A stretch of 48,735 nucleotides of DNA from an uncultured Clostridia bacterium. GTDB taxonomy: Bacteria; Bacillota; Clostridia; TANB77; CAG-508. The position numbers and the translations under genes are program-made. Below are positions 10 to 47,365 of the stretch, piece after piece; within the stretch, counting starts at the first letter, position 1, and each line of letters opens with the position of its first letter. The stretch lies in the NCBI GenBank assembly GCA_944388985.1, contig CALXKT010000002.1:1-48735 (forward strand). Direction: 5' to 3'. Under the pieces are notes generated by a model. That model was not told the DNA's origin, ran no database searches, and saw only the letters and a program-made list of their open reading frames with translations.

Positions 10-297
10 TTGAAGATATTAATACTTCTAAAAATAGTTCTACCGTTACGAAAAGTAACATCGGTACACAAAGATGTTAGTGAACGATTACAAAAAATAA
101 GCCCTTATCTCGCGGCAGAAGTAAGAAGCGTTTTAGATGAAAATAAAGCAGAGAGACACATTCGAGGAGGTTTGGCTACTAAGCTAAAATATGAACATGA
201 ACATATGAATGGAAATGTTCGGATGAAACAAGGGGACACACAATGTGTTTCAACTTTGGAACAAAGGGACAGACATATTAGTTTGACGGAAAATTAA
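10..297 (+). CDS. SpoIIID-like sporulation transcription factor, atypical and possibly degenerate copy
   Basis: The translation contains VHKDVSERL..AAEVRSVLDENKAERHIRGGLATKLKYE, which matches the conserved C-terminal half of SpoIIID. There is an in-frame TAA at 1-3, a TTG start, and the helix-turn-helix part looks shortened. Part of the roughly 30-codon C-terminal tail (nt 223-274) is read through GGGACA-box repeats. Confidence 0.45.
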   Translation: MKILILLKIVLPLRKVTSVHKDVSERLQKISPYLAAEVRSVLDENKAERHIRGGLATKLKYEHEHMNGNVRMKQGDTQCVSTLEQRDRHISLTEN

Positions 298-403
298 ATT
301 AGGAGCAATTGGGGACGTTCTTATTTTGCGCAAGTACCTGTGCAAAATAAGAACGTCCCCAATTGCTCCTCTTGAACAAATAGGAGTGTCCCTTCTGTTC
401 AAG
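223..403. repeat. GGGACA-box repeat cluster (subfamilies D, E, A), including a 32-bp-stem hairpin at 301-370
   Basis: Boxes at 233, 266, 312, 354 and 387. AGGAGCAATTGGGGACGTTCTTATTTTGCGCA / TGTGCAAAATAAGAACGTCCCCAATTGCTCCT form an inverted repeat with one G:T mismatch. Confidence 0.85.
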
Positions 404-413
404 TTATTTTTTT
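371..413 (+). terminator. repeat-derived hairpin with T-run (terminator of the SpoIIID-like gene)
   Basis: CTTGAACA-aataggagtgtcccttc-TGTTCAAG followed by TTATTTTTTT. Confidence 0.5.
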
Positions 414-1182
414 AGATTCCCATTATATTATAGCCGTTATCTGCATATATCACTTGGCCAGTAATTACAGAAGACATATTACTAAATAAGAAAGCTACTA
501 CATTTCCTACTTCCTCAGTTGTAACATTTCTTCTAAGTGGTGCCTTTTCTTCTACAACATCTAAAATGCTTCCAAAGTCTTTGATACCTTTTGCAGACAA
601 TGTTTTAATAGGTCCTGCAGATACTGCATTCACACGAATGTTTTTCTTTCCTAAGTTATCTGCTAAGTATCTTACACTTGTCTCTAAAGCAGCTTTTGCT
701 ACTCCCATTACATTATATCCTGGTAATACTTTTGTTGAACCATAATAAGTTAAGGATACTAAACTAGCTCCGTCGTTTAGCATTTCTAGTTCTTCTGCAA
801 TTCTAGCAACTGCAACAAAAGAATAAGCACTTACATCATTTGCATGTGAAAATCCCTCTCTGCTTGTTGTAATAAAATCATTTCTTAAATCTTCTGTATT
901 GGCATGTGCAATACTATGTAAAATACCATCTAAATTTCCATTCTCCGCTTTGATTTTTTCAAAACATTCTTTAATAGACTCATCACTAGAAGCATCGCAA
1001 GAATATGCCTTTGCTCCAGGAATTTCAGAGATTAATTCCTCTATTTTTTCTCTATTTTCTTCTCCCATAAAAGTAAATAACACTTTTGCTCCATTGTCGG
1101 CAGCAGATCTTGCTGCTCCCCATGCAATACTCCACTTATTTCGAATTCCCATAATTAATACTGTTTTGTTTTCTAATAACAT
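412..1182 (-). CDS. fabI: enoyl-ACP reductase (NADH), FabI type
   Basis: SDR fold with N-terminal GIRNKWSIAWG loop and FabI-type YNVMGVAKAALE (Y-x6-K). It is the last gene of the fab/acc cluster. Confidence 0.85.
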   Translation of the reverse strand: MLLENKTVLIMGIRNKWSIAWGAARSAADNGAKVLFTFMGEENREKIEELISEIPGAKAYSCDASSDESIKECFEKIKAENGNLDGILHSIAHANTEDLRNDFITTSREGFSHANDVSAYSFVAVARIAEELEMLNDGASLVSLTYYGSTKVLPGYNVMGVAKAALETSVRYLADNLGKKNIRVNAVSAGPIKTLSAKGIKDFGSILDVVEEKAPLRRNVTTEEVGNVVAFLFSNMSSVITGQVIYADNGYNIMGI

Positions 1183-1204
1183 TTTTCTTTCCTCCTATTT
1201 TTAT

Positions 1205-1993
1205 TTACATTTTTCTAAACTTTTGATAACGTTGTTCTACTAAGTCGTCTACTTTTATCGCCTGCAACTCTTCGGTAATAGCTACTATTTTCTTTTTAAG
1301 CGTCTCTGCCATTTTTTCCACATCGGTCTTAGCATTTCCATTTGGCTCTTTTATCACTTCATCAATGACGCCTAAATCTAGTAAATCTTTTGCAGTAAGC
1401 TTCATTTTTTCGGCAGCCTCTTCGGCCCTTGTGCTATCTTTCCATAAAATACTGGCATAACCTTCTGGTGAAAGGATGGAATAAACCGCATTTTCTAGCA
1501 TCAATACTCTGTCTCCTACACCTATTGCTAAGGCTCCACCGCTAGAGCCTTCTCCAATTACAATTGCAATAATTGGCACTTTTAAGTCCGACATTTCCAT
1601 CAAATTTCTAGCAATGGCTTCGCCTTGCCCTCTTTCCTCTGCGCCAATTCCTGGATAAGCCCCCTTGGTATCGATAAAAGTAATAATTGGTCTATGGAAT
1701 TTTTCAGCCTGCTTCATAAATCTTAATGCCTTGCGATACGCTTCTGGGTTAGGCATTCCGAAATTTCTTTCAATGTTTTCTTTGGTATTTCTACCTTTCT
1801 GTTCTGCCACAATGGTATAATTTTGTTTTGCAATATTCCCAAGACCACACACAATTGATTTATCATCTTTAAAATAACGGTCTCCATGCAATTCTATGAA
1901 TTCATCAAATATCTTTTCAATATAATCTAGTGCAGTAGGTCTTTCTGGCTCTCTTGCAATCTTTACTCTTTCCCATGCAGTTACCTTTGCCAA
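1205..1993 (-). CDS. accA: acetyl-CoA carboxylase carboxyltransferase alpha subunit
   Basis: IGEGSSGGALA motif and full-length alpha-CT pattern. TTG start preceded by AAAGGATGG. Adjacent to accD. Confidence 0.88.
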   Translation of the reverse strand: MAKVTAWERVKIAREPERPTALDYIEKIFDEFIELHGDRYFKDDKSIVCGLGNIAKQNYTIVAEQKGRNTKENIERNFGMPNPEAYRKALRFMKQAEKFHRPIITFIDTKGAYPGIGAEERGQGEAIARNLMEMSDLKVPIIAIVIGEGSSGGALAIGVGDRVLMLENAVYSILSPEGYASILWKDSTRAEEAAEKMKLTAKDLLDLGVIDEVIKEPNGNAKTDVEKMAETLKKKIVAITEELQAIKVDDLVEQRYQKFRKM

Positions 1994-2012
1994 GTTAATC
2001 CATCCTTTCTCT

Positions 2013-2858
2013 TTATTTGTTTAGCAGTAAAAGTTTATATAATGTTTCTTTCATGTCTTTTCGATTTACCACTTTATCTACAAATCCATGTTCTAATAAA
2101 AACTCTGCTGTTTGGAAGCCCTCTGGTAAGTCCTCTCCAATGGTTTGCTTTATTACTCTAGGTCCTGCAAAACCTATCATCGCATTTGGTTCTGCTAAAA
2201 TGATATCCCCTAAAGTAGCAAAACTTGCCGTAACTCCACCATATGTTGGATCTGTCAAAATGGAAATATAGAGATTTCCTGCCTTTTGTAATTTTTCGAC
2301 AGCAGCTACTGTTTTTGCCATCTGCATTAAAGAAATAATTCCTTCCTGCATTCTGGCTCCTCCAGAAGCCGAGAAGATAATCACCGGTAACTTTAGCTCT
2401 ATCGCTTTTTCGATAGAATTGGTAATATTTTCACCAACTACTCTTCCCATACTTCCCATCATAAAATTACTATCCATAACACAAATAACTACTTTTTCTC
2501 CATTAATCTTACCAATGCCACATTTTACTGCTTCCTCTAAACCTGTTTTTTCTCTTAGCACTTCTAACTTTTTCACATAGTCGTCCATTTCTAAAGGATT
2601 CGTGGTATTGCAATCTAGCTGAAACTCTTCAAAAGTACCGCTGTCTACGATTTGGTCTATTCTTCTTCTGCTAGACAAACGAAAATGATTTCCACAATTA
2701 GGGCACACACTGTAATTCTTGTGTAAATCTTCTTTATATAATATCTCCTTACACTTGCTACACTTTACCCACATTCCTACTGGAATATCACTTCGATGCT
2801 CTTTCTCACTTCCATCTTCTTGGTATTCAATTCTTTTCTTAATTTTATCAATAACCAT
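2013..2858 (-). CDS. accD: acetyl-CoA carboxylase carboxyltransferase beta subunit
   Basis: N-terminal zinc ribbon (CSKCKE..CPNCG) followed by the beta-CT domain with SGGARMQEG. Confidence 0.9.
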
Positions 2859-2872
2859 ATTTCTTCCTTTCT

Positions 2873-3021
2873 TTCCAGTTTGGGGACAGGCGTTTTTCTC
2901 TACTTTTTTCCAATTTAGGGACAGGCGTTATTTTCACGCCATTTTATTATCTTACTTTTATCCTAAAGGGTGTCCCCATTTTGGAAAAAAGTAGAGAAAA
3001 ACGCCTGTCCCCAAACTGGAA
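2873..3021. repeat. GGGACA-box repeat cluster (subfamily C) between accC and accD
   Basis: Perfect 41-bp inverted repeat, 2873-2913 vs 2981-3021. Four boxes at 2883, 2918, 2971 and 3006 with 35-bp phase in each arm. Confidence 0.9.
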
Positions 3022-3022
3022 C

Positions 3023-4360
3023 TCACATATACTTCTCAATGAAAGAGGTATCATAGTCATTGTTTACAAACTTCTCATTGGATAATATGCGAAATAGAAA
3101 ATCGATATTCGTATCAATTCCTTCAATGACGCATTCTTCCAATGCTCGCTTCATTTTTGCTATTGCAGCATTTCTGTTTTCTGCATGTACAATTAATTTT
3201 GCTATCATGGAATCATACATAGGTGGAATAGTATAGCCTGTATACACTGCTGTGTCTATTCTTACTCCATTTCCTCCTGGTAGATTTAGTTCTGTAATCT
3301 TCCCTGGACATGGTCTAAAGTTTTTGTCTGGATTTTCCGCATTAATTCTGCATTCAATTGCATGCCCTCTAAAAGTAATGTCCTTTTGTGTAAATGCTAG
3401 TGGCTCTCCAGATGCAATCTTTATCTGCTCTTTTACAATGTCAATCCCTGTTACCATCTCTGTTACAGGATGTTCTACTTGAATTCTTGTGTTCATTTCC
3501 ATAAAGTAAAAGTTTTTATCTTTGTCCACTAAAAATTCTATTGTTCCTGCATTGGTATAGCCAGATGCTTTTACTGCACGAATGGCTGCTTTTCCCATTT
3601 TGGCTCTTAGTTCTTCGTCAATTACCATGGATGGGCTTTCTTCCAATACTTTTTGGTTTCTTCTTTGGATAGAGCAGTCTCTTTCTCCTAAATGTACTAC
3701 ATTTCCTTGCTCATCTGCCAAAACTTGCATTTCTACATGGCGTGGATTAACAATAAACTTTTCCATATAGATGGCATCATCTTTAAAGGATGCTTTTGCT
3801 TCTTGCTTTACTAGGTGAAAGGCATTTTCCATTTCAGATTCACTTTCTACTTTTCGAATGCCTTTGCCTCCTCCACCAGCAGACGCCTTAAGAAGAACCG
3901 GATATCCTATTTCTGCCGCACATGCAATAGCCTCTTTTACGGTTTCAATACACCCATCTGAACCTGGTACAACTGGTACCTTTGCATTTTTCATTAATTC
4001 TTTACTATTGGATTTGTTTCCCATTAAATCAATTACATGGTAAGATGGTCCAATAAATTTTAATTTACTTTCCTCACACATTTTAGCGAAACTAGCATTT
4101 TCCGATAAAAAACCAAAGCCGGGATGAATGCTATCGCAATTCGTTGTACATGCTGCTTCTAGTATGTTCTGAATATTTAAGTAACTTTTTGCGGAAGGAG
4201 CTGGCCCTACACAAACTGCTTCATCTGCAAGTCTTACATGTAAGGCATCTCTATCTGCTTCCGAATAAATTGCTACAGTTTTAATATTCATTTCCTTGCA
4301 AGCTCTTATAATTCTAACTGCTATTTCTCCTCTGTTTGCCACTAAAACTTTCTTTAACAT
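3023..4360 (-). CDS. accC: biotin carboxylase
   Basis: ATP-grasp motifs GGGGKGIR and EMNTRIQVEHPVTE. 445 aa, typical length. Confidence 0.92.
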   Translation of the reverse strand: MLKKVLVANRGEIAVRIIRACKEMNIKTVAIYSEADRDALHVRLADEAVCVGPAPSAKSYLNIQNILEAACTTNCDSIHPGFGFLSENASFAKMCEESKLKFIGPSYHVIDLMGNKSNSKELMKNAKVPVVPGSDGCIETVKEAIACAAEIGYPVLLKASAGGGGKGIRKVESESEMENAFHLVKQEAKASFKDDAIYMEKFIVNPRHVEMQVLADEQGNVVHLGERDCSIQRRNQKVLEESPSMVIDEELRAKMGKAAIRAVKASGYTNAGTIEFLVDKDKNFYFMEMNTRIQVEHPVTEMVTGIDIVKEQIKIASGEPLAFTQKDITFRGHAIECRINAENPDKNFRPCPGKITELNLPGGNGVRIDTAVYTGYTIPPMYDSMIAKLIVHAENRNAAIAKMKRALEECVIEGIDTNIDFLFRILSNEKFVNNDYDTSFIEKYM

Positions 4361-4465
4361 GAACTCTCTCCTTGTTTTTTATTAAATTCTAGCTTGATTC
4401 TTTCCTTTTATACGCATTAAATTTTCCCAAACGTCTTCTTTTGCAATAAAAAACGACAATCTTCC

Positions 4466-4888
4466 TTACACAATTGCAAAAGTAAGCTCTCCTTTTGCTG
4501 CCACTTTTCCATCTACGGTTGCAATTGCTTCTCCTACTCCGATAGGACCTTTTTGCTTTATTATTTTCACTTCTAGTTTTAACACATCGCCAGGAACCAC
4601 TTGCTTTTTGAAACGAAGTTTATCAATTCCTCCAAATAAAGCATTTTTCCCCTTATTTTCTTCCATAGAAAGAATGGCAACAGCACCCGTTTGTGCTAAT
4701 GCTTCTACAATAAGCACACCTGGCATAATTGGTTGCCCTGGAAAATGCCCTTGAAAATGTGGCTCATTAATGCATACATTTTTATAAGCTGTGCAACTTT
4801 GCCCTGGCACATATTCCTCTACTCTGTCTATCATCAAAAATGGTGGTCTTTGAGGTATTATTTTCATTATTTCATTAATATCTAACAT
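4466..4888 (-). CDS. fabZ: 3-hydroxyacyl-ACP dehydratase
   Basis: Hot-dog fold with [19 protein letters not shown] active-site region. Confidence 0.9.
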
Positions 4889-4965
4889 GGTTTTCTCTCC
4901 CTACTTTCACGTTTAATTTAGCACTACTAAGTTTTGACAACGCAAGATGCCATTTTTCATTCGTT

Positions 4966-5412
4966 TTATCTTATTTTAAATAGTGGCTTCCCATAATCCA
5001 CCATTTCTCCATCTTCTACACATACTTCTACTACTTCTCCATCAAATTCCGACTCAATTTCGTTCATCAATTTCATGGCTTCTACAATGCAAAGAATGTC
5101 TCCTTTTTTTACTTTGCTTCCTACTGTTACATAAGGCTTTGCTTCTGGGGAAGATTTTGAATAAAAAGTTCCTACCATTGGTGATTTTACCACTTTACAT
5201 TCTTCAACTTCTTTACTATTTTCTTCTTTTTCTGTAGCTTCTGTTTTCACTGGTGCTTTTTCTGGCACGGTAATGTATTGCACTCCTCCTGCTACTGGTG
5301 CTTTATCTTTCTTCATGCTAATTTTCACACCATCTGGAAATTCAATACTAAGCTCATCAATTTTAGAATCTCCCATATCATCAATTAATCTTTTAATTTC
5401 TTCGTAATTCAT
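4966..5412 (-). CDS. accB: biotin carboxyl carrier protein
   Basis: C-terminal biotinyl domain with EAMKLMNEI. Start moved to the ATG at 5412, which has AGGAG 7 nt upstream, rather than the ORF-track start at 5430. Confidence 0.85.
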   Translation of the reverse strand: MNYEEIKRLIDDMGDSKIDELSIEFPDGVKISMKKDKAPVAGGVQYITVPEKAPVKTEATEKEENSKEVEECKVVKSPMVGTFYSKSSPEAKPYVTVGSKVKKGDILCIVEAMKLMNEIESEFDGEVVEVCVEDGEMVDYGKPLFKIR

Positions 5413-5422
5413 GTTTTCACTC

Positions 5423-6661
5423 CTATTCATACTTTTTTAACAATATACTAGCATTGTGTCCACCAAATCCTAACGAATTCGACATAGCATATTTTACATC
5501 TACTTTTCTTCCTTCATTTGGAACAATATCTAAGTCGCATTCTTCGTCTGGTACTTTATAGTTGATAGTTGCTGGTACAAAGCCTTCTTCAATTGCTTTT
5601 GCACATACAATAGCTTCTACTCCTCCTGCTGCTCCTAATAAATGGGCTGTATGGCTCTTTGTAGAACTAACCATTACTTTCTTGCTTGCTTCTTCTCCCA
5701 AAGCTGTTTTGATAGCTTGCGTTTCTCCTGAATCATTTAAATGAGTAGATGTTCCATGCGCATTTATGTAGGTAATTTCTTCTGGTTTTGCTCCTGCTTC
5801 TGCCATCGCAATTTTCATTGCTCTTGCTCCACCTTCTCCTCCTGGCGCAGGTGAAGTAATGTGGTAAGCATCCGATGTTGCACCATAACCAACTATCTCT
5901 GCATAGATTTTAGCGCCTCTTTTTAAAGCATGTTCTAACTCTTCTAGGATAATAACACCAGCTCCTTCTCCCATAACAAAACCGCTTCTCTCTTTGTCGA
6001 ATGGGATACTTGCTCTGTTTTTATCTGTTGCTTGGGATAATGCTTTAATATTGGTAAATCCGGAAATTCCCATTGGCGTAATAGGTGCTTCTGTTCCACC
6101 AGCTAATACAATATCTTGATATCCATGTTTTATCATGTGAAAACTTTCTCCAATACAGTGAGTTCCCGTTGCACAAGCCGTTACCATGGAAATCGATTCT
6201 CCTTTAATTCCTAGTTCAATGGCTACGTTTCCTGCTGCCATATTTACAATACTCATTGGAATAAACATAGGAGATACTCTATCTGGTCCTTTTGCAAACA
6301 AGTTGGAAGATTCGCGTTCAATAGTCTCTAAACCACCAATTCCAGAACCTAGGATAACACCTACTCTTTCCATATTTTCTGTTTCTTTATCTAATTTACT
6401 ATCTTGCCAAGCTTCTTTCGCTGCAACGATTGCAAACTGTGAATATCTATCTAATCTTTTTGCATTTCTTTTATCGAAATGTTCTTCTGCATTATAACCT
6501 TTTACTTCTGCTGCTAATTTTACTTTATAATTGGTAGTATCAAAATGCGTAATTTCATCAATTCCACATTTTCCCTCTTTAATTCCTTTCCAGAATTCTT
6601 CTGCATTATTTCCAATAGGAGTAATCGCTCCCAATCCTGTAATAACGACTCTTCTTTCCAT
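5423..6661 (-). CDS. fabF: 3-oxoacyl-ACP synthase II
   Basis: KAS II motifs: active-site Cys in VTACATG, then NAHGTST, HLLGAAG and C-terminal NSLGFGGHNAS. Start taken at MERRVVITG, which has AAGGAGA 9 nt upstream. Confidence 0.9.
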   Translation of the reverse strand: MERRVVITGLGAITPIGNNAEEFWKGIKEGKCGIDEITHFDTTNYKVKLAAEVKGYNAEEHFDKRNAKRLDRYSQFAIVAAKEAWQDSKLDKETENMERVGVILGSGIGGLETIERESSNLFAKGPDRVSPMFIPMSIVNMAAGNVAIELGIKGESISMVTACATGTHCIGESFHMIKHGYQDIVLAGGTEAPITPMGISGFTNIKALSQATDKNRASIPFDKERSGFVMGEGAGVIILEELEHALKRGAKIYAEIVGYGATSDAYHITSPAPGGEGGARAMKIAMAEAGAKPEEITYINAHGTSTHLNDSGETQAIKTALGEEASKKVMVSSTKSHTAHLLGAAGGVEAIVCAKAIEEGFVPATINYKVPDEECDLDIVPNEGRKVDVKYAMSNSLGFGGHNASILLKKYE

Positions 6662-6696
6662 TTTGCACATTCTCCTTTTTTATTTTTAATTTTAGC

Positions 6697-7437
6697 CTAC
6701 ATTACCATACCGCCATCAATGTTTATAACCTGTCCCGTCACATACGAGCTATCTTCTGATGCCAAGAACTTAACCACTTTTGCTACTTCCCTTGGAGTTC
6801 CCATTCTTTTTAGTGGTATTTGAGCATGAATTCCATCTTTTACGGTATCAGATAATACCTTTGTCATATCTGTATCAATAAAACCTGGTGCTACTGCATT
6901 TACTAAAATATTTCTACTTGCCACTTCTTTTGCTAAACTTTTAGTAAATCCAATAATTCCTGCTTTTGATGCGGAATAATTCGTTTGCCCAGCATTTCCT
7001 GCTACTCCTACTACAGAAGATAAACTAATAATTCTGCCCGATTTTTGCTTAATCATGTAAGGAATGACATTTCTTGTTACATTAAAAGTTCCCGTTAAAT
7101 TAACATCAACAACTGCTTCAAAGTCTTCTTTCTTCATTCTCATAATCAAGCCATCTCTTGTAATTCCTGCATTATTTACTAACACATCAATTCTGCCAAA
7201 TTTTTCAATGGTATCCTTTACCATTGCTTCACATTGTTCGAAATTTGCTACATCTGCTTCCACAAATTCGCATCTTACACCATTTTTTTCTATCTCTTTT
7301 CTTAATTCTTCTAAAGAATCATCTTTTCTTCTGCAATTTACAGCAATGTCAAATCCATTTTCGGCAAGTTCTAAGGCAATTTCTTTTCCAATTCCTCTGG
7401 TTGCCCCAGTAATTAAAGCCACTTTATTTTCACTCAT
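6697..7437 (-). CDS. fabG: 3-oxoacyl-ACP reductase
   Basis: TGATRGIG cofactor loop and NYSASKAG (Y-x3-K). Sits between fabD and fabF. Start at the second ATG, which has better RBS spacing. Confidence 0.88.
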   Translation of the reverse strand: MSENKVALITGATRGIGKEIALELAENGFDIAVNCRRKDDSLEELRKEIEKNGVRCEFVEADVANFEQCEAMVKDTIEKFGRIDVLVNNAGITRDGLIMRMKKEDFEAVVDVNLTGTFNVTRNVIPYMIKQKSGRIISLSSVVGVAGNAGQTNYSASKAGIIGFTKSLAKEVASRNILVNAVAPGFIDTDMTKVLSDTVKDGIHAQIPLKRMGTPREVAKVVKFLASEDSSYVTGQVINIDGGMVM

Positions 7438-7535
7438 TTTCTTCATCCTTTCTTGTTTTATTCGTTTATTCCTAAATTTTATTATGTACTTTTCTTATTC
7501 TCTGTGAAGACTTTTTTGTTCGTTTTTTGACCGTT

Positions 7536-7557
7536 AAGAGTGTCCCTTTTGTCCAAG
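7536..7557. repeat. single GGGACA-box unit (subfamily B)
   Basis: AAGAGTGTCCCTTTTGTCCAAG, 4 nt from the fabD stop codon. Confidence 0.7.
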
Positions 7558-7560
7558 CTA

Positions 7561-8499
7561 CTATTTTAATTGTTGTAAAGCACTCTCCATTGTTTCTATA
7601 TTTTCAATGTTAAGCACTGTCACACCTAGTTCTTTTTCCTTTGCTACTTTTCTTACAAAACCAGATAGAGTTTTTCCTGGTCCTATTTCCGCAAAAGTAT
7701 CGATTCCCATAGCTAACATGGTCTCCACCGATTTTCTAAATTTTACTGGGCACATAACATGGTTCGCTAATATTTCTACCATATTATCTTCTTCTGCATA
7801 AGGAGTGCCATCTAAGTTTTTTATAACAGGAAGCTGACATGGTGCAAAAGTAATTTTTTCTAATTCTTTTTTTAAAGCTTTCGATGCTTCCTGTAGTTTT
7901 TCAGTGTGGAAAGGTCCACTTGTTTTTAGCTCTACTGCTTTTCTTGCTCCTAAAGCTTTTGCATTTTCCATTGCCTTTGTTACTGCTACTTTCTCCCCAG
8001 AAACAACTACTTGCCCTGGGCAATTGTAATTTACTGCTCTTACGAAGCCCTCTGTCACTTTGCTACAAGCTTCCTCTACTTTGTCATCTTCTAGCCCAAT
8101 AATTGCGGCCATAGCCCACTCGCCTTTTGGTGCTAGCTCTTGCATCAAAGTTCCTCTTGTTCTTACAATTTTTGCTCCTTCTTCTATAGAAATAACTTTT
8201 GCACATGTTAAAGCACTATATTCTCCTAAACTTAATCCTGCTGCTGCATCTACTTGAACACCTTGTGTTTTTAGAATTTCTAAAATTGCCATGCTCATAG
8301 CATAAATAGCAATTTGTGTATTTTTTGTTTGATTCAATTCTTCCTCACTTGTTTCAAACGTTAATTTTGCGATATCTTCTCCTAAAACTTGCTCTATCTT
8401 TTTATATACCTTTTTAGCTTCGTCATATTTTTCATATAAGTCTTTTCCCATTCCTACTGTTTGCGTTCCTTGCCCTGGAAAAACAAATCCAATTTTCAT
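7561..8499 (-). CDS. fabD: malonyl-CoA:ACP transacylase
   Basis: FPGQGTQ and GLSLGEYSA (active Ser). Start set to MKIGFVFPGQG, with AAAGGA upstream. The 18-codon N-terminal extension in the ORF track is unsupported. Confidence 0.88.
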   Translation of the reverse strand: MKIGFVFPGQGTQTVGMGKDLYEKYDEAKKVYKKIEQVLGEDIAKLTFETSEEELNQTKNTQIAIYAMSMAILEILKTQGVQVDAAAGLSLGEYSALTCAKVISIEEGAKIVRTRGTLMQELAPKGEWAMAAIIGLEDDKVEEACSKVTEGFVRAVNYNCPGQVVVSGEKVAVTKAMENAKALGARKAVELKTSGPFHTEKLQEASKALKKELEKITFAPCQLPVIKNLDGTPYAEEDNMVEILANHVMCPVKFRKSVETMLAMGIDTFAEIGPGKTLSGFVRKVAKEKELGVTVLNIENIETMESALQQLK

Positions 8500-8542
8500 T
8501 TTCTTCGTCCTTTCTTTTGCATTTTTTGTTATTTTTTGAACA

Positions 8543-9469: not shown

Positions 9470-9501
9470 ATGTATTCCTTTCCGTTAATTTTTCGAATAG
9501 T

Positions 9502-9510
9502 ATTATACCA
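9502..9510 (-). promoter_or_regulatory. extended -10 element (TGgTATAAT) of the fab operon promoter
   Basis: The minus strand reads TTTATGGTATAAT about 30 nt upstream of the fabH RBS. The -35 is weak. Confidence 0.35.
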
Positions 9511-9594
9511 TAAATGTAATTTTTTTGCATCCTTTCTAACCAATTGGTCGAAATTTTTGGTTACAGGATAATGGTTTATCATTCTTTTTATTTT

Positions 9595-9801: not shown

Positions 9802-9819
9802 AACAAGATATAATCTATT

Positions 9820-9838
9820 GTGTGTCCCCTTGTTTCAT
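9820..9838. repeat. single GGGACA-box unit (subfamily D)
   Basis: GTGTGTCCCCTTGTTTCAT, 4 nt from the rimO stop. The same unit occurs at 46358-46376, and in the inverse orientation at 223-241. Confidence 0.7.
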
Positions 9839-9841
9839 TTT

Positions 9842-11227: not shown

Positions 11228-11366
11228 CTTGAACAGAAGGGACACTCCTAAACGTTCAAGAATTTGAACAAAAGGGACAGTCCTTGTTCGCTGTTTCCTT
11301 AAAAAAATAAGGAGTGTCCCAAAAGTTTAAGAACTTGAACAAAAAGGAGTGTCCCTTCTGTTCAAG
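11228..11366. repeat. GGGACA-box repeat cluster (subfamily A), 139-bp expanded palindrome
   Basis: Outer 21-bp arms CTTGAACAGAAGGGACACTCC / GGAGTGTCCCTTCTGTTCAAG are perfect. Four boxes at 11239, 11274, 11315 and 11350. Confidence 0.9.
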
Positions 11367-12819: not shown

Positions 12820-12904
12820 ATATCCAAATTCAAATTTAATTCTTTTCCAAGCAGATGTATGCCTTAAGAATATAAATAAATATAAAGTGAAAGGAAATGA
12901 TAAA

Positions 12905-14632
12905 ATGAGTAAATACAAAAGAAAATTATATGATGCAGACAAAATAAATGATTTTCGTGGACTTATTAATCGCTATTCTACTCTTTATGCTGATAAAGTT
13001 GCATTCGAATTCAAAAAAACACCAGATGCAACAGAACATATAAAAATTACTTATGGTCAATTTGTAAAAGATATTAAAGCACTTGCTACTTCTTTACTTG
13101 GGCTTGGCTTATCTCAAAAAAGAGTTGCTTTAGTTGGTCCCAACCGTTATGAATGGTGCACCAGCTACTTAGCAATTACTACTTCCGACATGGTAGTAGT
13201 CCCACTTGATAAATCCTTACCAGATAATGAAATTGAAGACCTAATTATGCGAAGCAAAGCGGAAGCTGTCATTTTTGACCAAAAATATGCAGAAGTATTT
13301 TCCAAAATCGCAGCCGAGGGAAAATCCCATTTAACTTCTTTTATTTGCATGGATGAAACGGAGCATTTTCCAAGTCTATCTAGCCTTATTCAAAAAGGTA
13401 ATTCAATGCTTACCAATGGAGATACTACCTATGATTCCATTAAAATTGATAACCAAAAAATGTCGATTATGCTTTTCACTTCTGGTACCACCTCCATTTC
13501 CAAAGCAGTGGCTCTTTCCCAATCTAATATTTGCGAAGACATCTATGCTCTTGCACAAATGACAGATATTCGAAAAGAAGATACTTTTTTATCTTTTTTA
13601 CCACTGCATCATACGTTTGAATCAACTTGTACTTTTTTATATGGTACTTTTTCTGGCATCACAGTTGCTTTTTGTGATGGGCTTAAATACATTCAAAAAA
13701 ATCTAGCAGAATTTAAAGTAACAGGACTTGTTTGTGTTCCTTTAATGTTAGAAATTATGTATAAAAAAATCAAAAAAGGAATTGAAGAAAAAGGAAAAAC
13801 AAAATTAGTACACAATATGACCAAAGTTTGTAATGGCCTATTAAAATTTGGAATTGATATTCGTCGAAAAGTATTTAAAGAAGTATTAGACAACTTAGGT
13901 GGCAAAATCCGATTTTTAATTGCTGGAGGCGCTGCGATGAGTCGAGAGGCTATCCAAGGATTTTTAGACTTAGGCATCAATTTGCTACAAGGTTATGGAT
14001 TAACTGAAACTTCTCCTGTGGTAGCCGGGGAAAATGACAAATTTAAAAGATGTGGTTCTGTTGGTTTTCCTCTTCCAGGAATTGATGTTAAAATAGACAA
14101 CCCAGACAAAGACGGAACTGGAGAAATTGCAGTAAAAGCACCTACCGTAATGCTTGGCTATGTAGACAATCCTAAAGCAACTGCTGAAGTTCTAAAAGAT
14201 GGATGGTTTTATACTGGAGATTTAGGCTATTTTGATAAAGATGGATTTTTATTCATCACGGGAAGAAAAAAAGATGTAATTGTTTTAAAAAATGGAAAAA
14301 ATATTTTTCCAGAAGAAATTGAAATATTAATAAATAATTTACCTTATGTATCAGAATGCATGGTTTTTGGAAGACCTTGTGATGATGGCGACTACAAAAT
14401 AGGAGCCAAAATTGTCTATAACAAAGAGATAGTAGAAAAAGAATTTCCAAATATTACGCAAGAAGAGTTATACAAAATAATATGGAATGATATTAAGGAA
14501 AAAGTAAATCATAAGATGCCAGCTTATAAATACGTAAGAGAAATTATGATAACAGAAGCACCTTTAATTAAGACTACCACGCAAAAAGTAAAACGCCATG
14601 AGGAATTAAAGCTAATTTTAGGCGAAGCTTGA
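12905..14632 (+). CDS. AMP-dependent long-chain acyl-CoA synthetase/ligase
   Basis: AMP-binding motifs MLFTSGTTSISKAV, GYGLTETS and TGDLGYFDKDGFLFITGRKKD. Start placed at the ATG at 12905 (AAAGGAA upstream). The stop TGA at 14630-14632 lies inside a repeat unit. Confidence 0.8.
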   Translation: MSKYKRKLYDADKINDFRGLINRYSTLYADKVAFEFKKTPDATEHIKITYGQFVKDIKALATSLLGLGLSQKRVALVGPNRYEWCTSYLAITTSDMVVVPLDKSLPDNEIEDLIMRSKAEAVIFDQKYAEVFSKIAAEGKSHLTSFICMDETEHFPSLSSLIQKGNSMLTNGDTTYDSIKIDNQKMSIMLFTSGTTSISKAVALSQSNICEDIYALAQMTDIRKEDTFLSFLPLHHTFESTCTFLYGTFSGITVAFCDGLKYIQKNLAEFKVTGLVCVPLMLEIMYKKIKKGIEEKGKTKLVHNMTKVCNGLLKFGIDIRRKVFKEVLDNLGGKIRFLIAGGAAMSREAIQGFLDLGINLLQGYGLTETSPVVAGENDKFKRCGSVGFPLPGIDVKIDNPDKDGTGEIAVKAPTVMLGYVDNPKATAEVLKDGWFYTGDLGYFDKDGFLFITGRKKDVIVLKNGKNIFPEEIEILINNLPYVSECMVFGRPCDDGDYKIGAKIVYNKEIVEKEFPNITQEELYKIIWNDIKEKVNHKMPAYKYVREIMITEAPLIKTTTQKVKRHEELKLILGEA

Positions 14633-14695
14633 ACAGAAGGGACACTCCTAAACGTTCAAGAACTTGAACAAAAAGGAGTGTCCCTTCTGTTCAAG
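14628..14695. repeat. GGGACA-box repeat, 68-bp palindrome (subfamily A) between convergent genes
   Basis: Same perfect 21-bp arms as at 11228/11346. The 26-nt spacer contains the palindrome GTTCAAGAACTTGAAC. Confidence 0.9.
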
Positions 14696-21641: not shown

Positions 21642-21735
21642 TTCCAATTTAGGGACAGGCCTTTTTCTCTACTTTTTTCCAATTTAGGGACAGGCCTTTT
21701 GGTCTCCTTAGCGAAATGATAAAGCCTGTCTCTAT
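21642..21735. repeat. GGGACA-box repeat cluster (subfamily C) between hydA and era
   Basis: Two identical direct units TTCCAATTTAGGGACAGGCC at 21642 and 21677 (35-bp phase), plus a degenerate inverted copy at about 21719-21735. Confidence 0.85.
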
Positions 21736-23590: not shown

Positions 23591-23831
23591 TTCCAAATTG
23601 GGGACAGGCGTTTTTCTTCACTTTTTTCCACTTTTGGGACAGGCGTTAAAATTTTTGTGCATTCATCATTTTAGAATTTTACCTGTATAATCTGTTACGT
23701 TCAAATCATTTAGCCATTTTACAAATATTTCTGTATTTTTAATCTTCTTCTCTACCTTCTCCTTTAATTCCTAAAAGGGGTGTCCCTAAATTGGAAAAAA
23801 GTGGAGAAAAACGCCTGTCCCTAAAGTGGAA
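23591..23831. repeat. GGGACA-box repeat cluster (subfamily C) filling the hydB-hydA spacer
   Basis: Two direct boxes (23601, 23636) and two inverted boxes (23781, 23816) flank an AT-rich core of about 120 bp. The arms are about 85% complementary. Confidence 0.85.
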
Positions 23832-29121: not shown

Positions 29122-29138
29122 ACGGTTACTTCCTTTCT

Positions 29139-29169
29139 TTGGACAAAAAGGAGTGTCCCTTTTGTCCAA
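29139..29169. repeat. GGGACA-box hairpin unit (subfamily B)
   Basis: TTGGACAAAA-aggagtgtccc-TTTTGTCCAA. Confidence 0.8.
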
Positions 29170-29181
29170 GCCTTGATTTCT

Positions 29182-33279: not shown

Positions 33280-33441
33280 CTTGAACAGAAGGGACACTCC
33301 TTTTCGTTCAAGTTCTTAAACTTTTTGGACACTCCTTTCCGTCCAAGTTTTTGGACATTTAGGAGTGTCCCTTTTGTCCAAACTCTTAAAGTTTGAAGTA
33401 TTCCTTTTTTGCTTAAGTCCTTAAACTTCTTGGGCATTCCC
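33280..33441. repeat. GGGACA-box repeat cluster (subfamilies A/B) with decaying copies
   Basis: Intact units at 33280-33300 and 33351-33382, followed by progressively degenerate copies (TTGGACACTCC, GTATTCC, GGGCATTCCC) at a spacing of about 35 bp. Confidence 0.75.
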
Positions 33442-36703: not shown

Positions 36704-36712
36704 TTTGCCACC

Positions 36713-37753: not shown

Positions 37754-37821
37754 CTTGAACAAAAGGGACACTTCTAAAAGTTCAAGAACGTAAACAAAAA
37801 GGAGTGTCCCTACTGTTCAAG
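37754..37821. repeat. GGGACA-box repeat, 68-bp imperfect palindrome (subfamily A)
   Basis: CTTGAACAAAAGGGACACTTC...GGAGTGTCCCTACTGTTCAAG, with the same 40-bp box offset as 14628-14695. It contains the stop codon of the RluA-family gene. Confidence 0.85.
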
Positions 37822-38503
37822 GTTCACTCCTTCTAATATCTTCCATGTACCATTTAGCTCTGGTACAGAGGTAAAAATCATTTCTTTCTTTGTAATAGGA
37901 TGCTGTATTTTCAATTGATATGCCCACAGAGCAATTTGCTTGCCATGTCCTCTTCCGCCATATTTCTGGTCTCCATAAATGCTATGATTTCGGCTAGATA
38001 ACTGTACTCGGATTTGGTGATGCCTACCGGTATGTAAATCAATTTTCAAAACCGATAAATCAATTTCTGGATTATATTTTAATACTTCATAATCTAAAGA
38101 AGCAAGTTTTGCATTTTTGGTACCTTCTTTTACCACTTTGCTTCTATTTTTTTGCTCATTTTTCCACAAATAGTCCTCTAAAGTTCCGCTTCTCTTGTTC
38201 CATTTTGCCATTTACCACTACCAAATACGTTTTTTGAAACACCTTTTCTCGCACTTGCTCACTAAGCCTTGCCGCAGCTTTCGATGTTTTGGCAAATACC
38301 ATCACTCCGCCAACAGGTCTATCTAATCGATGAACAAGCCCTAGATACACATTTCCGGGTTTATCGTACTTTTCCTTCAAGTATTCCTTTATTATGGTAA
38401 GCATGTCGCAATCTCCGGTTTTATCCCCTTGCGATGGTATGTTTACCGGTTTTTCTACCACAATTATATGATTATCTTCATAAATTACTTTTAATTTCTG
38501 CAT
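37810..38503 (-). pseudogene. RluA-family pseudouridine synthase interrupted by a 1-nt frameshift
   Basis: The N-terminal ORF (38156-38503) carries HRLDRPVGGVMVFAKT. The C-terminal ORF (37810-38211) carries GRHHQIRVQL. The frames join at ..VVNGK/WNKRSGTLEDY across an A4 run (T-run 38203-38206 on the plus strand). Confidence 0.75.
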
Positions 38504-39395: not shown

Positions 39396-39420
39396 TACAA
39401 CTTCTTCCTTTCTTCTCTCA

Positions 39421-39488
39421 TTGGACAGAAGGGACTACTGCCCTTTATCCATTTTCTTGGACAAAAAGGTCTGTCCCTTTTGTCCAAG
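39421..39488. repeat. GGGACA-box repeat cluster (subfamily B)
   Basis: TTGGACAGAAGGGACTAC, plus the hairpin CTTGGACAAAA-aggtctgtccc-TTTTGTCCAAG (39456-39488). Confidence 0.8.
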
Positions 39489-39489
39489 C

Positions 39490-39693
39490 TCAAATCTTTC
39501 CAAGCACATTCACAAAACTACTAATGAGTACTATATCTAGAATCATAAAACTTATAGTAGCAGTCACTATCGTAGTCATCATTTTATGTTCAGTAATTAA
39601 ATGTACTATACTCTTTCTGCCACTTTTCTTCCTTTCTAGCCCCTCTTCCAATACTTTTCCTTGCTCTAAAATAATATCTTTTGCATACTCCAT
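39490..39693 (-). CDS. small membrane protein (67 aa), hypothetical
   Basis: GGGGGA RBS upstream, a C-terminal TM helix, and it fills the gap downstream of uvrC. Confidence 0.45.
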   Translation of the reverse strand: MEYAKDIILEQGKVLEEGLERKKSGRKSIVHLITEHKMMTTIVTATISFMILDIVLISSFVNVLGKI

Positions 39694-42460: not shown

Positions 42461-42565
42461 CTTGCAAAAGCGAAAGGTCTGTCCCTTTTGCCCATGAACT
42501 TAAACAAAAAGGAGTGTCCCTAACGTTCAAGAACTTGGACAAAAAAGAATGTCCCTACTGTCCAA
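42461..42565. repeat. GGGACA-box tandem array, 3 units (subfamilies A/B)
   Basis: TGTCCC at 42480, 42515 and 42550 (exact 35-bp phase). The last unit contains the stop codon of the M23 gene. Confidence 0.85.
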
Positions 42566-43553
42566 AGTCCAAAATAGCTTCTGGATTAATGGATCTGTTT
42601 TCTCTTCTTATCTCAAAATGTAAATGCGGACCCGTGGAATTTCCTGTAGAGCCAACTTCTGCAATTTTGTCTCCTTGTTTTACTTTGTCTCCCTCTTTTA
42701 CCAAAAGCTTACTACAATGGGCATATCTTGTTAAAACATTTCCATTTGTTATATCAATATGCTTGCCATACTCTCCCTCTTCTGAAGAAACTGTTACGGT
42801 TCCATCCATTGCTGCATAAATAGCAGTGCCTTCATTTGCACCAATATCAATACCTGCATGATTTGCAGACACTACTTCTGTTGCCTCTCTTGTGCCATAG
42901 CGAGAAGTTACAGTTCCTTCTACTGGCACAATAAAATGATAATTTTCTTTTATATATTCCACATCTAGTTCATATTGCGATTTTTGTTCTGTGTTTTTTT
43001 CCGCTTCTTTTGTGTCTCCCTCTGCTTCTACAATTTCATTCGTTACAGCTCCGCCCACTCCTCCTACGGTGTTTGTATCCATCGTGTTGGTTGCTATTTC
43101 ATTTGCGTTTACTGTATTACTCTCTACCTCGTTAGTGGTTACAGCGTTAACATTTACTAAATTCGCATCCACTTCACTCTCCATATTTTCGTTTTCTTCA
43201 TCATTCCCACCAAATATTCCTAAAAAAGGAAATCTATCTTTATTTTGATTAATAAATTCCGTCACTTGTTGTCCTATATTTCTAAAATTTATATCATAGG
43301 ATAAAAATTCCTTTGTTTTCTTGATTACGTCTTCAGAAAAAATATAATTACTATTTTTTATCAGATAAAAAATAATATAAATAACAGCACAAATAGCCAA
43401 TTGTAAGAACATTTTTTTAAATAAGGATAGCTTCTTTTTTTCTGCTCGGTTCACTGTATTCGAAGAAACACGTATCCCATTTGCCACTCTTCTCCTTTGA
43501 TAAATTTCTTCTGCTCTTCGAATTCTATCTTCCTGGCTCATCGTTCTTTCCAT
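42555..43553 (-). CDS. M23/LytM-domain membrane protein (SpoIVFA/SpoIIQ-like context)
   Basis: N-terminal TM helix, an Asn/Thr/Val-rich linker and a C-terminal M23 domain (HAGIDI, GSTGNSTGPHLHFEI). The stop codon TAG lies inside a repeat unit. Confidence 0.75.
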   Translation of the reverse strand: MERTMSQEDRIRRAEEIYQRRRVANGIRVSSNTVNRAEKKKLSLFKKMFLQLAICAVIYIIFYLIKNSNYIFSEDVIKKTKEFLSYDINFRNIGQQVTEFINQNKDRFPFLGIFGGNDEENENMESEVDANLVNVNAVTTNEVESNTVNANEIATNTMDTNTVGGVGGAVTNEIVEAEGDTKEAEKNTEQKSQYELDVEYIKENYHFIVPVEGTVTSRYGTREATEVVSANHAGIDIGANEGTAIYAAMDGTVTVSSEEGEYGKHIDITNGNVLTRYAHCSKLLVKEGDKVKQGDKIAEVGSTGNSTGPHLHFEIRRENRSINPEAILDFGQ

Positions 43554-45470: not shown

Positions 45471-46178
45471 CTAATATGTTTTTTTACTACTTTTTCGCTT
45501 CCTACTTTGCATTTCCTCTTTTACTTCTTTACTAACACGATTGGACTCGATTATTTTCTGAAGCGCCTTGTTAAAAGTGAAATCATCTAAATGATTTTGC
45601 TCTAAAAATTTTATAGTTCTTTCCTCATCTTTTACAAAAGCCATTGAAATTCCCCAAGCGATTCCCATTTTCACATAGTATTTATCTAAATGAATAGAGT
45701 CATAAACAGCAAAAACATTATCCATATCTTCCTCTGTTAAATAATAATCCATCATCATAATAACCGCAAATCTCACTTCAAACTCGTTCTGCGAAGTAAC
45801 ATATTTTTGCAAATACTCCCACATTTCTTTTTTATGCTTATTGGTAAATTTAAAAGTAGAACAACAGCAATCACAAATTGCCCAATTATCAATCATAGGA
45901 ACAAATTTATCTAAATACGCTATTCTTTCTGCCAAATCTGCTTTTTCATAACCTATTACTAACCCATAAATCATTTTTTCTTCATAAAATTCACACTTAT
46001 ACGTATCTAAAAATTCTTTTGGATTCTCCTTTGCAATTTTCTTGGCTAATTCTCTTAATTTTGGAATCCTTACTCCTATGATATTGTCAATATTGGGGCA
46101 TAATCCACTATGAAATTTTTTATATTCTTCCTCTGCTAATTGAAATAACTCTTCTCTTAAATTCATATTTAATTTCAC
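45471..46178 (-). CDS. DNA alkylation repair protein (AlkD/HEAT-like family)
   Basis: 235 aa with N-terminal ..EYKKFHSGLCPN..IIGVRIPKLRELAK and a WAICDCCC region typical of the DNA_alkylation family. Confidence 0.6.
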   Translation of the reverse strand: MKLNMNLREELFQLAEEEYKKFHSGLCPNIDNIIGVRIPKLRELAKKIAKENPKEFLDTYKCEFYEEKMIYGLVIGYEKADLAERIAYLDKFVPMIDNWAICDCCCSTFKFTNKHKKEMWEYLQKYVTSQNEFEVRFAVIMMMDYYLTEEDMDNVFAVYDSIHLDKYYVKMGIAWGISMAFVKDEERTIKFLEQNHLDDFTFNKALQKIIESNRVSKEVKEEMQSRKRKSSKKTY

Positions 46179-46275
46179 TACTTTCTTATTCTTCTAATTT
46201 GTTCCGCTTCAGAAACAAAACTTTCTTCCTGTTAGAACACCCTTATTTTACCACTTTTTAATAGTTATATCAACA

Positions 46276-46376
46276 ATGAAACAAGTGGACAGACGTATAA
46301 AGAAAATTTGCAAAATAATTTTATGTCTGTCCCCCTGTTTCAAAAATGAAACGAATTGTGTGTCCCCTTGTTTCAT
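46276..46376. repeat. GGGACA-box repeat cluster (subfamily D)
   Basis: An inverted pair (46276-46296 degenerate, 46323-46343) plus the hairpin ATGAAAC-gaattgtgtgtcccctt-GTTTCAT (46346-46376). Confidence 0.8.
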
Positions 46377-46379
46377 CCC

Positions 46380-47240
46380 CTACGGTTCCAAATCACTTAA
46401 AATCTTATTTTTATACTCTCGATACACATTATCATATTTTTTCACAAAATCCAAAATAACATATTTCGTACATGGATACTCTAATCGCAAAGCATTTCCC
46501 AATACATGTTTTTTTCCATTTTTATACTGCACAACAAATCGGCTTCCTTTAGTTGTTTTTTCTCTTTCTTTGTAGAGCGGAATAATGACATCTCGATATA
46601 ATTTTTCATAAGAAAATAAATACTTTTTTCCCGTAAAACTCTTTGGCACAAAAACAATTGGACGCTCATTATGCATTGGCAACTCTTCCTTTAACCTTAC
46701 CCATTTTTCATTTTCTGCATCCCAGCATAGTTTGTCTAATTTTACTTTCTGCATCTCTATATCCCACATTTCACATTGCTTCTGTGTATAACTAATTAAA
46801 TCTGTAAATAAGATAGTGGTAATTAAATCCGATACTTTATCTTCACCAATATTTGGTATCATTATCAAACAGTCAAAAATATCTTCCACTTCTCCATTTT
46901 GTACCCATTCATTCTTTGCCAATAATCGTATTAAATCTCTCCCACCATTTTCTCCAAAACTCTTTCCGTGTGTAGTTTCTAAGGAATATCCAAGCCTTGT
47001 TTCATTTCTTTCATACAAATTTTCATTAATTTCCATTAATGTTGAATATTCTCTTCTCTTTGACAATTCTAACAAATTTTGAATAAAGTTTTCCACTTTT
47101 TGATAACAACTTTTATGAAATTCAGAAGTGCCTTTTTTTATTTTGGCTGGATCAATAAAAATTTTATTATCCTTGGAAAGATTAATATTCACAAAATCTA
47201 ATTTATTTGCTGAAATATGATATTTCAAACTGATTTTCAT
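46380..47240 (-). CDS. hypothetical protein (286 aa)
   Basis: Long ORF with coding-like composition. The only hint is a possible D..(E)DK acidic cluster (IPNIGEDKVSD). Flanked on both sides by repeat clusters. Confidence 0.45.
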   Translation of the reverse strand: MKISLKYHISANKLDFVNINLSKDNKIFIDPAKIKKGTSEFHKSCYQKVENFIQNLLELSKRREYSTLMEINENLYERNETRLGYSLETTHGKSFGENGGRDLIRLLAKNEWVQNGEVEDIFDCLIMIPNIGEDKVSDLITTILFTDLISYTQKQCEMWDIEMQKVKLDKLCWDAENEKWVRLKEELPMHNERPIVFVPKSFTGKKYLFSYEKLYRDVIIPLYKEREKTTKGSRFVVQYKNGKKHVLGNALRLEYPCTKYVILDFVKKYDNVYREYKNKILSDLEP

Positions 47241-47274
47241 TTTAATCTCCTAACTTTTACGCGTTGATAACAAA

Positions 47275-47365
47275 GGTGTGTCCCAAAAGTTCAAGAACTT
47301 AAACGAATTGGAGTGTCCCTAACGTTCAAGCTCTTGAACATTTAGGAGTGTCCCTTTTGTTCAAG
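47275..47365. repeat. GGGACA-box tandem array, 3 units (subfamily A)
   Basis: TGTCCC at 47279, 47314 and 47349 (exact 35-bp phase). The last unit is the hairpin CTTGAACA-tttaggagtgtcccttt-TGTTCAAG. Confidence 0.88.

Follow-up and report, generated by a model that had tools for sequence, protein, structure and literature searches.

A dense and apparently undescribed family of modular GGGAC-box repeats in the intergenic DNA of an uncultured Clostridia bacterium

To our knowledge, good understanding of the small dispersed palindromic repeats of bacteria is confined to those with a known RAYT partner, mostly in the Proteobacteria, and we know of no mobiliser of the BOX-type repeats of the Firmicutes. 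Here we describe a family of ~35-nt intergenic repeats, all with the box GGGAC(A), in an uncultured Clostridia bacterium (GenBank assembly GCA_944388985.1, contig CALXKT010000002.1, positions 1 to 48,735 of the forward strand). This whole stretch of 48,735 nt is referred to below as the window; it has a G+C content of ~32% and nearly all of its genes are on the - strand. The GGGAC-box repeats are a genuine, dense and apparently undescribed family in this genome, and their modules are assembled into larger palindromes.

Members of the REP/BIME/REPIN group are imperfect palindromes of 20-40 nt, present in high copy number, strictly extragenic and with several subfamilies per genome; they occur singly, as inverted doublets or in regular clusters, are co-transcribed, and sometimes conserve their positions from one species to another while their sequences differ (PMC6006769, PMC2817692, PMC3733652). 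The REP tag is a conserved GT[AG]G or CGTC tetranucleotide (PMC6006769, PMC3733652). The BOX elements of Streptococcus pneumoniae and S. suis (boxA-boxBn-boxC) are modular, with variable tandem internal modules, base-paired transcripts and a mobilising enzyme that is unknown; the three module types are ~45-60 nt in length, boxB is self-folding, and the elements are intergenic and sometimes alter the ends of coding sequences (PMC3049150).

The repeats of the window are organised along similar lines, and the resemblance to REP/BIME or MITE (miniature inverted-repeat transposable element) families drawn in a first-pass annotation of the sequence is supported. They are short imperfect palindromes, in high copy number (22 units of the main subfamily, T1, in 48.7 kb) and extragenic. 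Inverted doublets, as in REPINs, occupy 68 nt each at 14628-14695 and 37754-37821, and 38 →← arrays are present among the related loci listed. As in MITEs, there are terminal inverted repeats, with arms of 51-58 nt that are 81-94% complementary.

The abundance of the box is not due to chance, the expectation being taken from shuffles. GGGACA occurs 40 times in the window against 9.06 expected (the largest shuffle had 16) and the 10-mer GGAGTGTCCC/GGGACACTCC 13 times against 0.02. All of the box positions given in the first-pass annotation were reproduced, as were its 35-bp and 33-bp spacings, for example the 35-nt triplets and the 33 nt at 233/266 and 46328/46361. Thirty-five of the 40 boxes are in the repeat loci listed below, inside intergenic DNA that totals ~5.1 kb (~10% of the window), while the remaining five (6731, 23999, 30083, 32622 and 42310) are isolated, in coding DNA and at or below chance level. 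A covariance model, R1, was built from 22 aligned T1 units (alignment A1). Searched against the window with filters off, R1 recovered exactly the 22 T1 units, with no match in coding DNA except in the last codons of genes, so that the intergenic or last-codon placement described earlier is upheld. A repeat finder independently recovered the families (D1, 13 copies; D3, nine copies; D4 and D5, the arms of T2) together with long inverted pairs. Repeats are present in ~12 of the 19 gaps of at least 100 bp and make up ~3% of the window as a whole and ~30% of the intergenic part; the divergent promoter gaps 12650-12886 and 34293-34653 are both free of them. Where units overlap genes the overlap involves the last codons, with stop codons supplied at 14630-14632, 37810-12 and 42555-57, and two units of subfamily T3 are inside the 3' end of the spoIIID open reading frame (ORF), where they encode ~24 residues of the SpoIIID tail. 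The location of boxes within 0-20 nt of a stop codon, also reported earlier, is seen but is largely automatic, because the insertions landed in very short intercistronic spacers: the empty orthologous spacers are only 3-20 nt long. The intergenic total, and the array-polarity tally and G·U/A·C counts given below, were made by hand from the ORF table and search output.

Each module (33-35 nt) consists of an outer word, W, then 2-4 nt, the invariant GGGAC(A) and a subfamily-specific tail. The T1 consensus, CTTGAACAnAAGGGACACTCCTTTTTGTTCAAG, is 33 nt long, and the 35-nt period results from a 2-nt spacer between units. The T2 unit, TTCCAATTTAGGGACAGGCGTTTTTCTCTACTTTT, is 35 nt long; the T3 unit is ATGAAACAAGGGGACACACAATGTGTTTCA; T4 is a lone 68-nt palindrome at 302-369; and T5, with the unit TGTCGTTTTGGGGACAGGTCTCATGCCGACA, is found only in related genomes. 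When representatives of these five otherwise unalignable subfamilies are aligned, GGGAC(A) alone is conserved, at a unit offset of 11-12. T1 also contains repeated GNACA motifs (GGACA-N4-GGACA-N8-TGTCC), and the 5' foot of its hairpin is CTTG, preceded by variable bases (alignments A1 and A4 with flanks).

The modules are arranged according to a rule that the first-pass annotation did not contain, namely that arrays are always [→…←] with W outward. At the higher level the modules form a palindrome, [GGGACA→]n–core–[←TGTCCC]m, with its W ends towards the flanking genes. Each arm is made of one to four directly repeated modules, the longest single-orientation tandem run being four units (L046), and the arms are inverted, with the boxes inward, around a core of 0 to ~250 nt, giving a modular total length of 33 to ~320 nt. 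For comparison, at least 86 related loci (labelled L008, L053 and so on) were collected by a pattern scan with one genome per species. In all 46 mixed arrays, + units come before - units with no reversals (8/8 in the window and 38/38 among the related loci listed). The exact 35-nt phase is kept across →→, ←← and →← junctions, and its presence at the inverted junctions indicates that simple slippage alone is insufficient.

Half-elements follow stop codons in the mRNA sense in the window (371, 7525, 29138, 42464-42566 and 47263-47365) and in relatives (L046, L036, L019, L058 and L084). Antisense units, on the other hand, are directly upstream of the ribosome-binding site (RBS) at L071 3158-3225 and 5856-5920, L050 1516-1583 and window position 21642, and the antisense pairs in L071 and L050 rule out an RNA sense rule in which the first unit past the stop is always sense. 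The polarity therefore belongs to the outward-W palindrome and not to transcriptional sense. A stem variant is often common to all arrays within one locus. In L008 (430-640) a second inverted repeat (AAAGCTAATACATGTATTT / AAATACATGTATTAGCTTT) encloses the ~190-nt core that separates the T1 arms. This core, whose centre is GC-richer, may be a composite or a nested element.

The repeat loci of the window, with strand where one applies, are as follows.

223..281, + strand: two T3 units (→), 223-252 being ATGAAACAAGGGGACACACAATGTGTTTCA and 253-281 degenerate, within the 3' end of the spoIIID ORF 10..297.
302..369, unstranded: T4, a perfect palindrome of 68 nt, GGAGCAATTGGGGACG…CGTCCCCAATTGCTCC, with GGGACG boxes inward and a spurious microRNA (miRNA)-hairpin match in Rfam.
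371..403, - strand: single T1 unit (51.6 bits), 8 nt beyond the stop codon of gene 412..1182, of the enoyl-ACP reductase family (adh_short_C2).
2873..3021, unstranded: T2 element in the accC-accD gap, with two → 35-nt units, a 33-nt core and two ← units.
7525..7557, - strand: one T1 unit whose 3' arm has decayed, in an insert of ~95 nt in the fabD-fabG gap that is missing from L069 and L043.
9820..9841, - strand: T3 half-unit, ATGAAACAAGGGGACACACA on the - strand.
11228..11366, unstranded: T1 array →→←←, in exact 35-nt phase on each side; the orthologous gap of L071 has T5 →→←←.
14628..14695, unstranded: T1 doublet →← forming a 68-nt palindrome where two genes converge; it gives the TGA stop of gene 12887..14632.
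21642..21735, + strand: T2 half-element adjoining the start of an era-like gene, with two → units and a degenerate inverted box (GCCTGTCTC).
23591..23831, unstranded: T2 element between two hydrogenase subunit genes, with two → units, a 139-nt core and two ← units.
29138..29170, - strand: one T1 unit, a CTTGGACA variant, located after the stop at 29182 and before the Shine-Dalgarno sequence of the following gene; RNA fold of -18.7 kcal/mol.
33280..33441, unstranded: T1 array →→←, with units at 33280, 33315 and 33350 and decayed units at 33383-33441.
37754..37821, unstranded: T1 doublet →← that provides the final four codons and TAG stop of ORF 37810..38211.
39420..39488, unstranded: T1 doublet of a decayed → and an intact ← unit, beginning 1 nt past the TGA stop of an unlisted ORF of ~63 aa.
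42464..42566, - strand: three tandem T1 units in 35-nt phase; the M23 peptidase ORF enters the first, which supplies its TAG stop, and the site is empty in L076.
46276..46378, unstranded: T3 array of a degenerate → unit, a spacer and two ← units 33 nt apart.
47263..47365, - strand: three tandem T1 units in 35-nt phase, matched by R1.

The two T3 units at the start of the window lengthen the C-terminus of SpoIIID (window 1-297) by ~24 residues (…YEHEHMNGNVR-MKQGDTQCVSTLEQRDRHISLTEN), and the L053 orthologue stops after seven repeat-encoded residues (…YSHETRGQF); the comparison of the two ends indicates an old insertion with divergence afterwards. A pseudouridine synthase (PF00849, 37810-38503) is split between the overlapping ORFs 38156..38503 and 37810..38211, the second and downstream of which ends within a T1 unit; the split points to a frameshift, pseudogene formation or an error of sequencing. 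The unlisted ~63-aa ORF (39495-39690, - strand) is between uvrC and a methyltransferase gene and its C-terminal half is hydrophobic.

The family is present in at least 11 gut Clostridia species represented by metagenome-assembled genomes (MAGs), labelled uncultured Clostridium or Clostridia and originating from chicken, other gut and 'BRZ' samples; one is Candidatus Fimicola cottocaccae. Nearly all of the related loci listed are from about 11 such species. R1 found at least 172 T1 units in the 625 kb of related DNA searched, from about 11 MAG species, and the lone matches in high-GC genomes are at chance level and mostly fail the model. Many T1 units of the relatives are identical to the consensus (52 bits), although the syntenic genes share 65-84% nucleotide identity. 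A consensus that is nearly unchanged despite the divergence of the genes around it suggests that something constrains the sequence or keeps renewing it. The specific protein or RNA partner suggested in the first-pass annotation is inferred from this conservation across species.

The individual copies are not stable in position. The ~95-nt insert with a T1 unit in the fabD/fabG gap of the window is replaced by a spacer of 3-20 nt in L069 and L043, and the three T1 units in the M23/M50 peptidase gap are absent from L076, where the stop codon overlaps the RBS. Conversely, the accA/enoyl-ACP reductase gap is without a repeat in the window and carries a GGGAC-box insert of ~80 nt in L053. At other sites the subfamily differs: T2 in the accC/accD gap of the window is T5 in L053 and L043, T1 →→←← in the miaB-like gap is T5 →→←← in L071, and the 3' end of spoIIID, with two T3 units, T4 and T1 in the window, has a T3-like unit and five T1 units in L053. 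Judged from these orthologous gaps, turnover is rapid, with both empty sites and subfamily replacement.

A T1 unit is predicted to fold as a continuous, near-perfect hairpin of 14-15 bp with a CAC triloop (-18.7 kcal/mol as RNA, z-score -4; -8 to -12 kcal/mol as DNA). The first-pass annotation had placed the box in a loop of about 11 nt, which is wrong for this subfamily because GGGA is paired with UCCU and the box is thus in the upper stem. In larger elements the folds are more stable, with -51 kcal/mol for RNA of the T1 doublet 14628-14695 and -93 kcal/mol for the 149-nt hairpin of the T2 element 2873-3021. There are, as had been proposed, subfamilies with hairpin-preserving covariation, and the compensatory variation is real but concentrated at one position. 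In 105 distinct T1 units pair 5-31 is AU in 56, GC in 26, CG in seven and GU in six, a true compensatory change, while the other T1 stem positions are conserved in sequence. The T1 covariation score was above those of all 500 shuffles and all slid controls. Further stem variants, CTTGCAC/GTGCAAG and CATTGAC/GTCAATG, were seen. When 51 units, some of them related by descent, were oriented by the strand of the adjacent mRNA, the mismatches at stem pairs 2-8 were 13 G·U against three A·C, and the terminal stem pair was mixed (nine U·G against seven C·A). Taken together, the G·U excess and the covariation favour the folding of one specific strand of the T1 stem over recognition of a duplex site.

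We consider it about an even chance that the GGGAC-box repeats are a non-autonomous, modular palindromic family, analogous to REPIN/BIME, BOX or MITE elements, that is spread by a trans-acting enzyme encoded elsewhere. The proposal builds on features that are directly supported: module structure, polarity, phasing, hairpin potential and covariation, along with gain and loss from one species to another and conservation across species. The enzyme would spread the family and keep its copies uniform within each genome, and would recognise the GGGAC box within a single strand that has folded. We think it more likely to be a hairpin-recognising nuclease or transposase, of the HUH type or another, than a classical DDE enzyme. 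The number of modules would then alter by slippage, and arms would decay or be deleted to leave half-elements. Copies would persist nowhere but in non-coding spacers and the final codons of genes; as a result they would be co-transcribed, and hairpins of great stability would form in 3' untranslated regions and between cistrons. Such intercistronic hairpins probably change mRNA decay or processing, either as a side effect or through later use by the host. A more specific and rather doubtful proposal is that the partner is a vertically inherited, domesticated non-RAYT nuclease, transposase or nucleic-acid-binding protein, forming an undescribed repeat-partner system of gut Clostridia. On this view the partner would copy, maintain or use the modules, and the fixed offset of the invariant box in otherwise unrelated modules, the inward polarity and the conservation across species would be the marks of the system. 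If true, the Firmicutes would have an equivalent of the REPIN-RAYT symbiosis that works by a different chemistry, and it might help to explain the movement of BOX-type elements.

Several points weigh against spread by an enzyme that recognises a folded strand. Deamination of C to T, biased to the coding or leading strand, can equally yield the G·U excess; the coding strand of the window is G-rich and presumably the leading strand, so that effects on RNA are inseparable from those on single-stranded DNA of the lagging template. Single units of T2, in the window, and of T5, in relatives, do not fold alone (z-scores of about 0) and pair solely with a distant inverted copy, contrary to the stem-loop picture of the first-pass annotation; recognition of a hairpin plus box therefore fails to cover every subfamily. 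Pfam searches of the 48 window ORFs gave no transposase, RAYT or integrase, which agrees with the earlier statement that no transposase or RAYT gene is in the window, and those of 10 ORFs lying between → and ← units in relatives gave no partner enzyme, the genes being ordinary except for one encoding a protein with three helix-turn-helix (HTH) modules. A GT[AG]G or CGTC tag is absent from the hairpin foot, GTAG occurring only as an internal variant in two of the 22 units (CAGTAGGGAC), and a canonical RAYT is thereby disfavoured. Finally, the matches between flanks, which are T- or pyrimidine-rich, are no longer than 2-3 nt, and no target-site duplication or cleavage motif is definable because the flanks of the empty sites are strongly diverged.

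Of the rival explanations, the one that survives best, though we rate it improbable, is that the repeats are RNA elements selected by the host, acting as operon punctuation, barriers to 3' exonucleases, processing sites for RNase III or another enzyme, or weak attenuators, which would determine how stable adjacent cistrons are relative to one another, with GGGAC bound by an RNA-binding protein. It would account for the location of all copies in transcribed spacers and 3' ends and of none in the two divergent promoter gaps, for the very stable RNA folds, for the retention of an array at several orthologous gaps though the subfamily changes, for the excess of G·U over A·C on the mRNA strand and for the T1 consensus kept across species. 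However, many arrays are absent at the orthologous sites of sister species in essential operons, so that no site-specific requirement is evident. The polarity is moreover strand-symmetric, sense after stop codons and antisense before starts, and presents no single RNA sequence; the units are not intrinsic terminators, having no U-tract; and a mechanism of spreading would still be needed.

Somewhat less probable again is that the elements are cut-and-paste MITEs of a DDE transposon, whose 35-nt modules would be double-stranded transposase-binding sites in an inverted repeat-direct repeat layout like that of Mu, Tn7, IS21 and Tc3-type ends. Inverted arms of one to four direct modules around a variable core fit this layout, half-elements resemble solo ends, and the modules of T2 and T5, as noted above, do not fold alone. 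On the other hand, an autonomous parent with the same ends was not found in the related loci or in the metagenome, viral, plasmid and phage collections searched: the T2 pattern had no match in JGI metagenome contigs or in the 86 related loci listed, and the T1 pattern none in IMG/VR viral contigs. The T2 elements have no convincing target-site duplication, only 2-nt matches in pyrimidine-rich flanks; the stem covariation of T1 and T3 is unexpected for a double-stranded binding site; and the core-less doublet of 68 nt would be very small for a MITE.

There is little likelihood that no dedicated machinery is involved and that a few old insertions were amplified and homogenised by slippage, hairpin template switching and gene conversion. 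Tandem arrays with variable module number, the susceptibility of palindromes to template switching and the stem variants shared by arrays within a locus are all in its favour, but the colonisation of dozens of unlinked spacers of 3-20 nt is left unexplained, as are near-identical consensus units where genes differ by 16-35%. Least probable of all are chromosomal arrays of double-stranded binding sites for a nucleoid-associated, gyrase- or IHF-like factor, as reported for BIMEs, with the 35-nt phase setting their geometry, since in spite of the exact phase whatever the orientation, the invariant GGGAC at a fixed offset and the repeated GNACA motifs of T1, the compensatory stem changes and G·U tolerance indicate single-strand folding, presence at orthologous sites is highly variable and no candidate protein was found among the ORFs scanned.

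Searches for a named family support the earlier statement that none is recognisable. The covariance model and Rfam comparison that the first-pass annotation called for gave the 22 units described above and no match in Rfam at the gathering threshold; at E<=1 only sub-threshold hairpins of miRNA precursors appeared, which are spurious. A T1 array had no blastn match in plasmids, nor a T2 element in phages. The box sequence was found in the full-text literature searched only in eukaryotic primers, with no relevant context, and in the REP/RAYT literature consulted no mention was found of Clostridia or Firmicute families or of GGGAC. Other classes of element were considered and rejected. Intrinsic terminators would have a U-tract after the stem, which is missing, and a consensus scan of 1-20000 was at chance level, flagging two T2 fragments and no T1. 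CRISPR arrays are excluded by units that abut with 2-nt spacers and by the absence of cas domains from the Pfam scans of the window. Integron attC sites, DNA-uptake sequences, KOPS/SRS-like polar motifs, the CTTG/GTTC target of IS91 and the LexA box have only a superficial likeness.

The Pfam content of the window is that of ordinary chromosomal genes, with a fab/acc operon, a MiaB-like protein, RNase G, Pth, RecO, Era and a FeFe-hydrogenase, together with YqfD, YabP, SpoIIID, UvrC and an agr-like locus. The agr-like quorum-sensing locus (34654-37600), where the G+C content of the window is lowest (26-28%), encodes a LytTR response regulator, a GHKL histidine kinase (+) and AgrB (-); the divergent and convergent gaps that flank it are without GGGAC repeats. 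A single 437-aa ORF at 29182-30495 fuses YbeY endoribonuclease, diacylglycerol kinase and PAP2 phosphatase domains, an unusual three-way fusion. The 110-aa ORF at 9466-9798, between fabH and the MiaB-like gene, has no Pfam match and may not be a real gene; it contains a perfect 13-bp hairpin (9689-9718, CTTGAAGAAAAAAC-AAGT-TTTTTTCTTCAAG) with feet like the T1 arm and a weak R1 match of 17.9 bits. Among the relatives, L061 has a cluster of DnaA boxes at 3380-3560 (TTATCCACA, TGTGGATAA) upstream of a likely dnaA (from about 4061 onwards), which is probably oriC. Just upstream of these boxes is the gene for the protein with three tandem HTH modules (HTH_28, HTH_23 and Sigma70_r4; 197 aa, 2693-3286), which is bracketed by T1 units and was judged unrelated to the repeats.

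The arrays rewrite protein C-termini and stop codons and inflate the intercistronic gaps of essential operons (fab/acc) and hydrogenase genes, and they may break MAG assemblies or be miscalled as CRISPRs. An unusually simple invariant core, occurrence in at least 11 gut species and clear gain and loss make a comparative search for the partner gene tractable with complete genomes, and the importance of the family would rise considerably if genome-wide analysis gave a new type of partner protein.

In comparison with described systems, the family works like REPIN/BIME and BOX elements yet is without the REP tag, and it ties to no named family. With REP/BIME/REPIN it shares palindromes, doublets that form longer hairpins, regular clusters, coexisting subfamilies, co-transcription and positions that are sometimes kept while the sequence changes. 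The constant element here is an internal GGGAC at a fixed offset, whereas in REP/REPIN it is a tag at the foot; the arms here contain direct tandem modules, whereas orientations strictly alternate in REP/BIME; and the hosts are low-GC, spore-forming Clostridia, whereas those of REP/REPIN are Proteobacteria. The Correia/NEMIS elements of Neisseria duplicate a TA target and have a fixed length of ~100-155 bp, with terminal inverted repeats around a short core. Correia elements and MITEs resemble the present family in their terminal inverted repeats and short core, their location next to genes and their co-transcription as long hairpins, but the length of the GGGAC-box elements, unlike that of Correia, is modular. 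CRISPRs are likewise partly palindromic repeats of ~33-35 nt in regularly phased arrays; unlike them, the GGGAC-box units run in either orientation, are scattered over many loci in operons, and have neither unique spacers nor cas genes nearby. With BOX the comparison is one of description, that is of modular logic and not of sequence, and we know of no sequence similarity between the two. Both have a Firmicute host, a modular composite structure with a variable number of modules, strong pairing, an intergenic location and altered coding ends, whereas in the GGGAC-box family one 35-nt module builds both inverted arms and all subfamilies have the GGGAC core.

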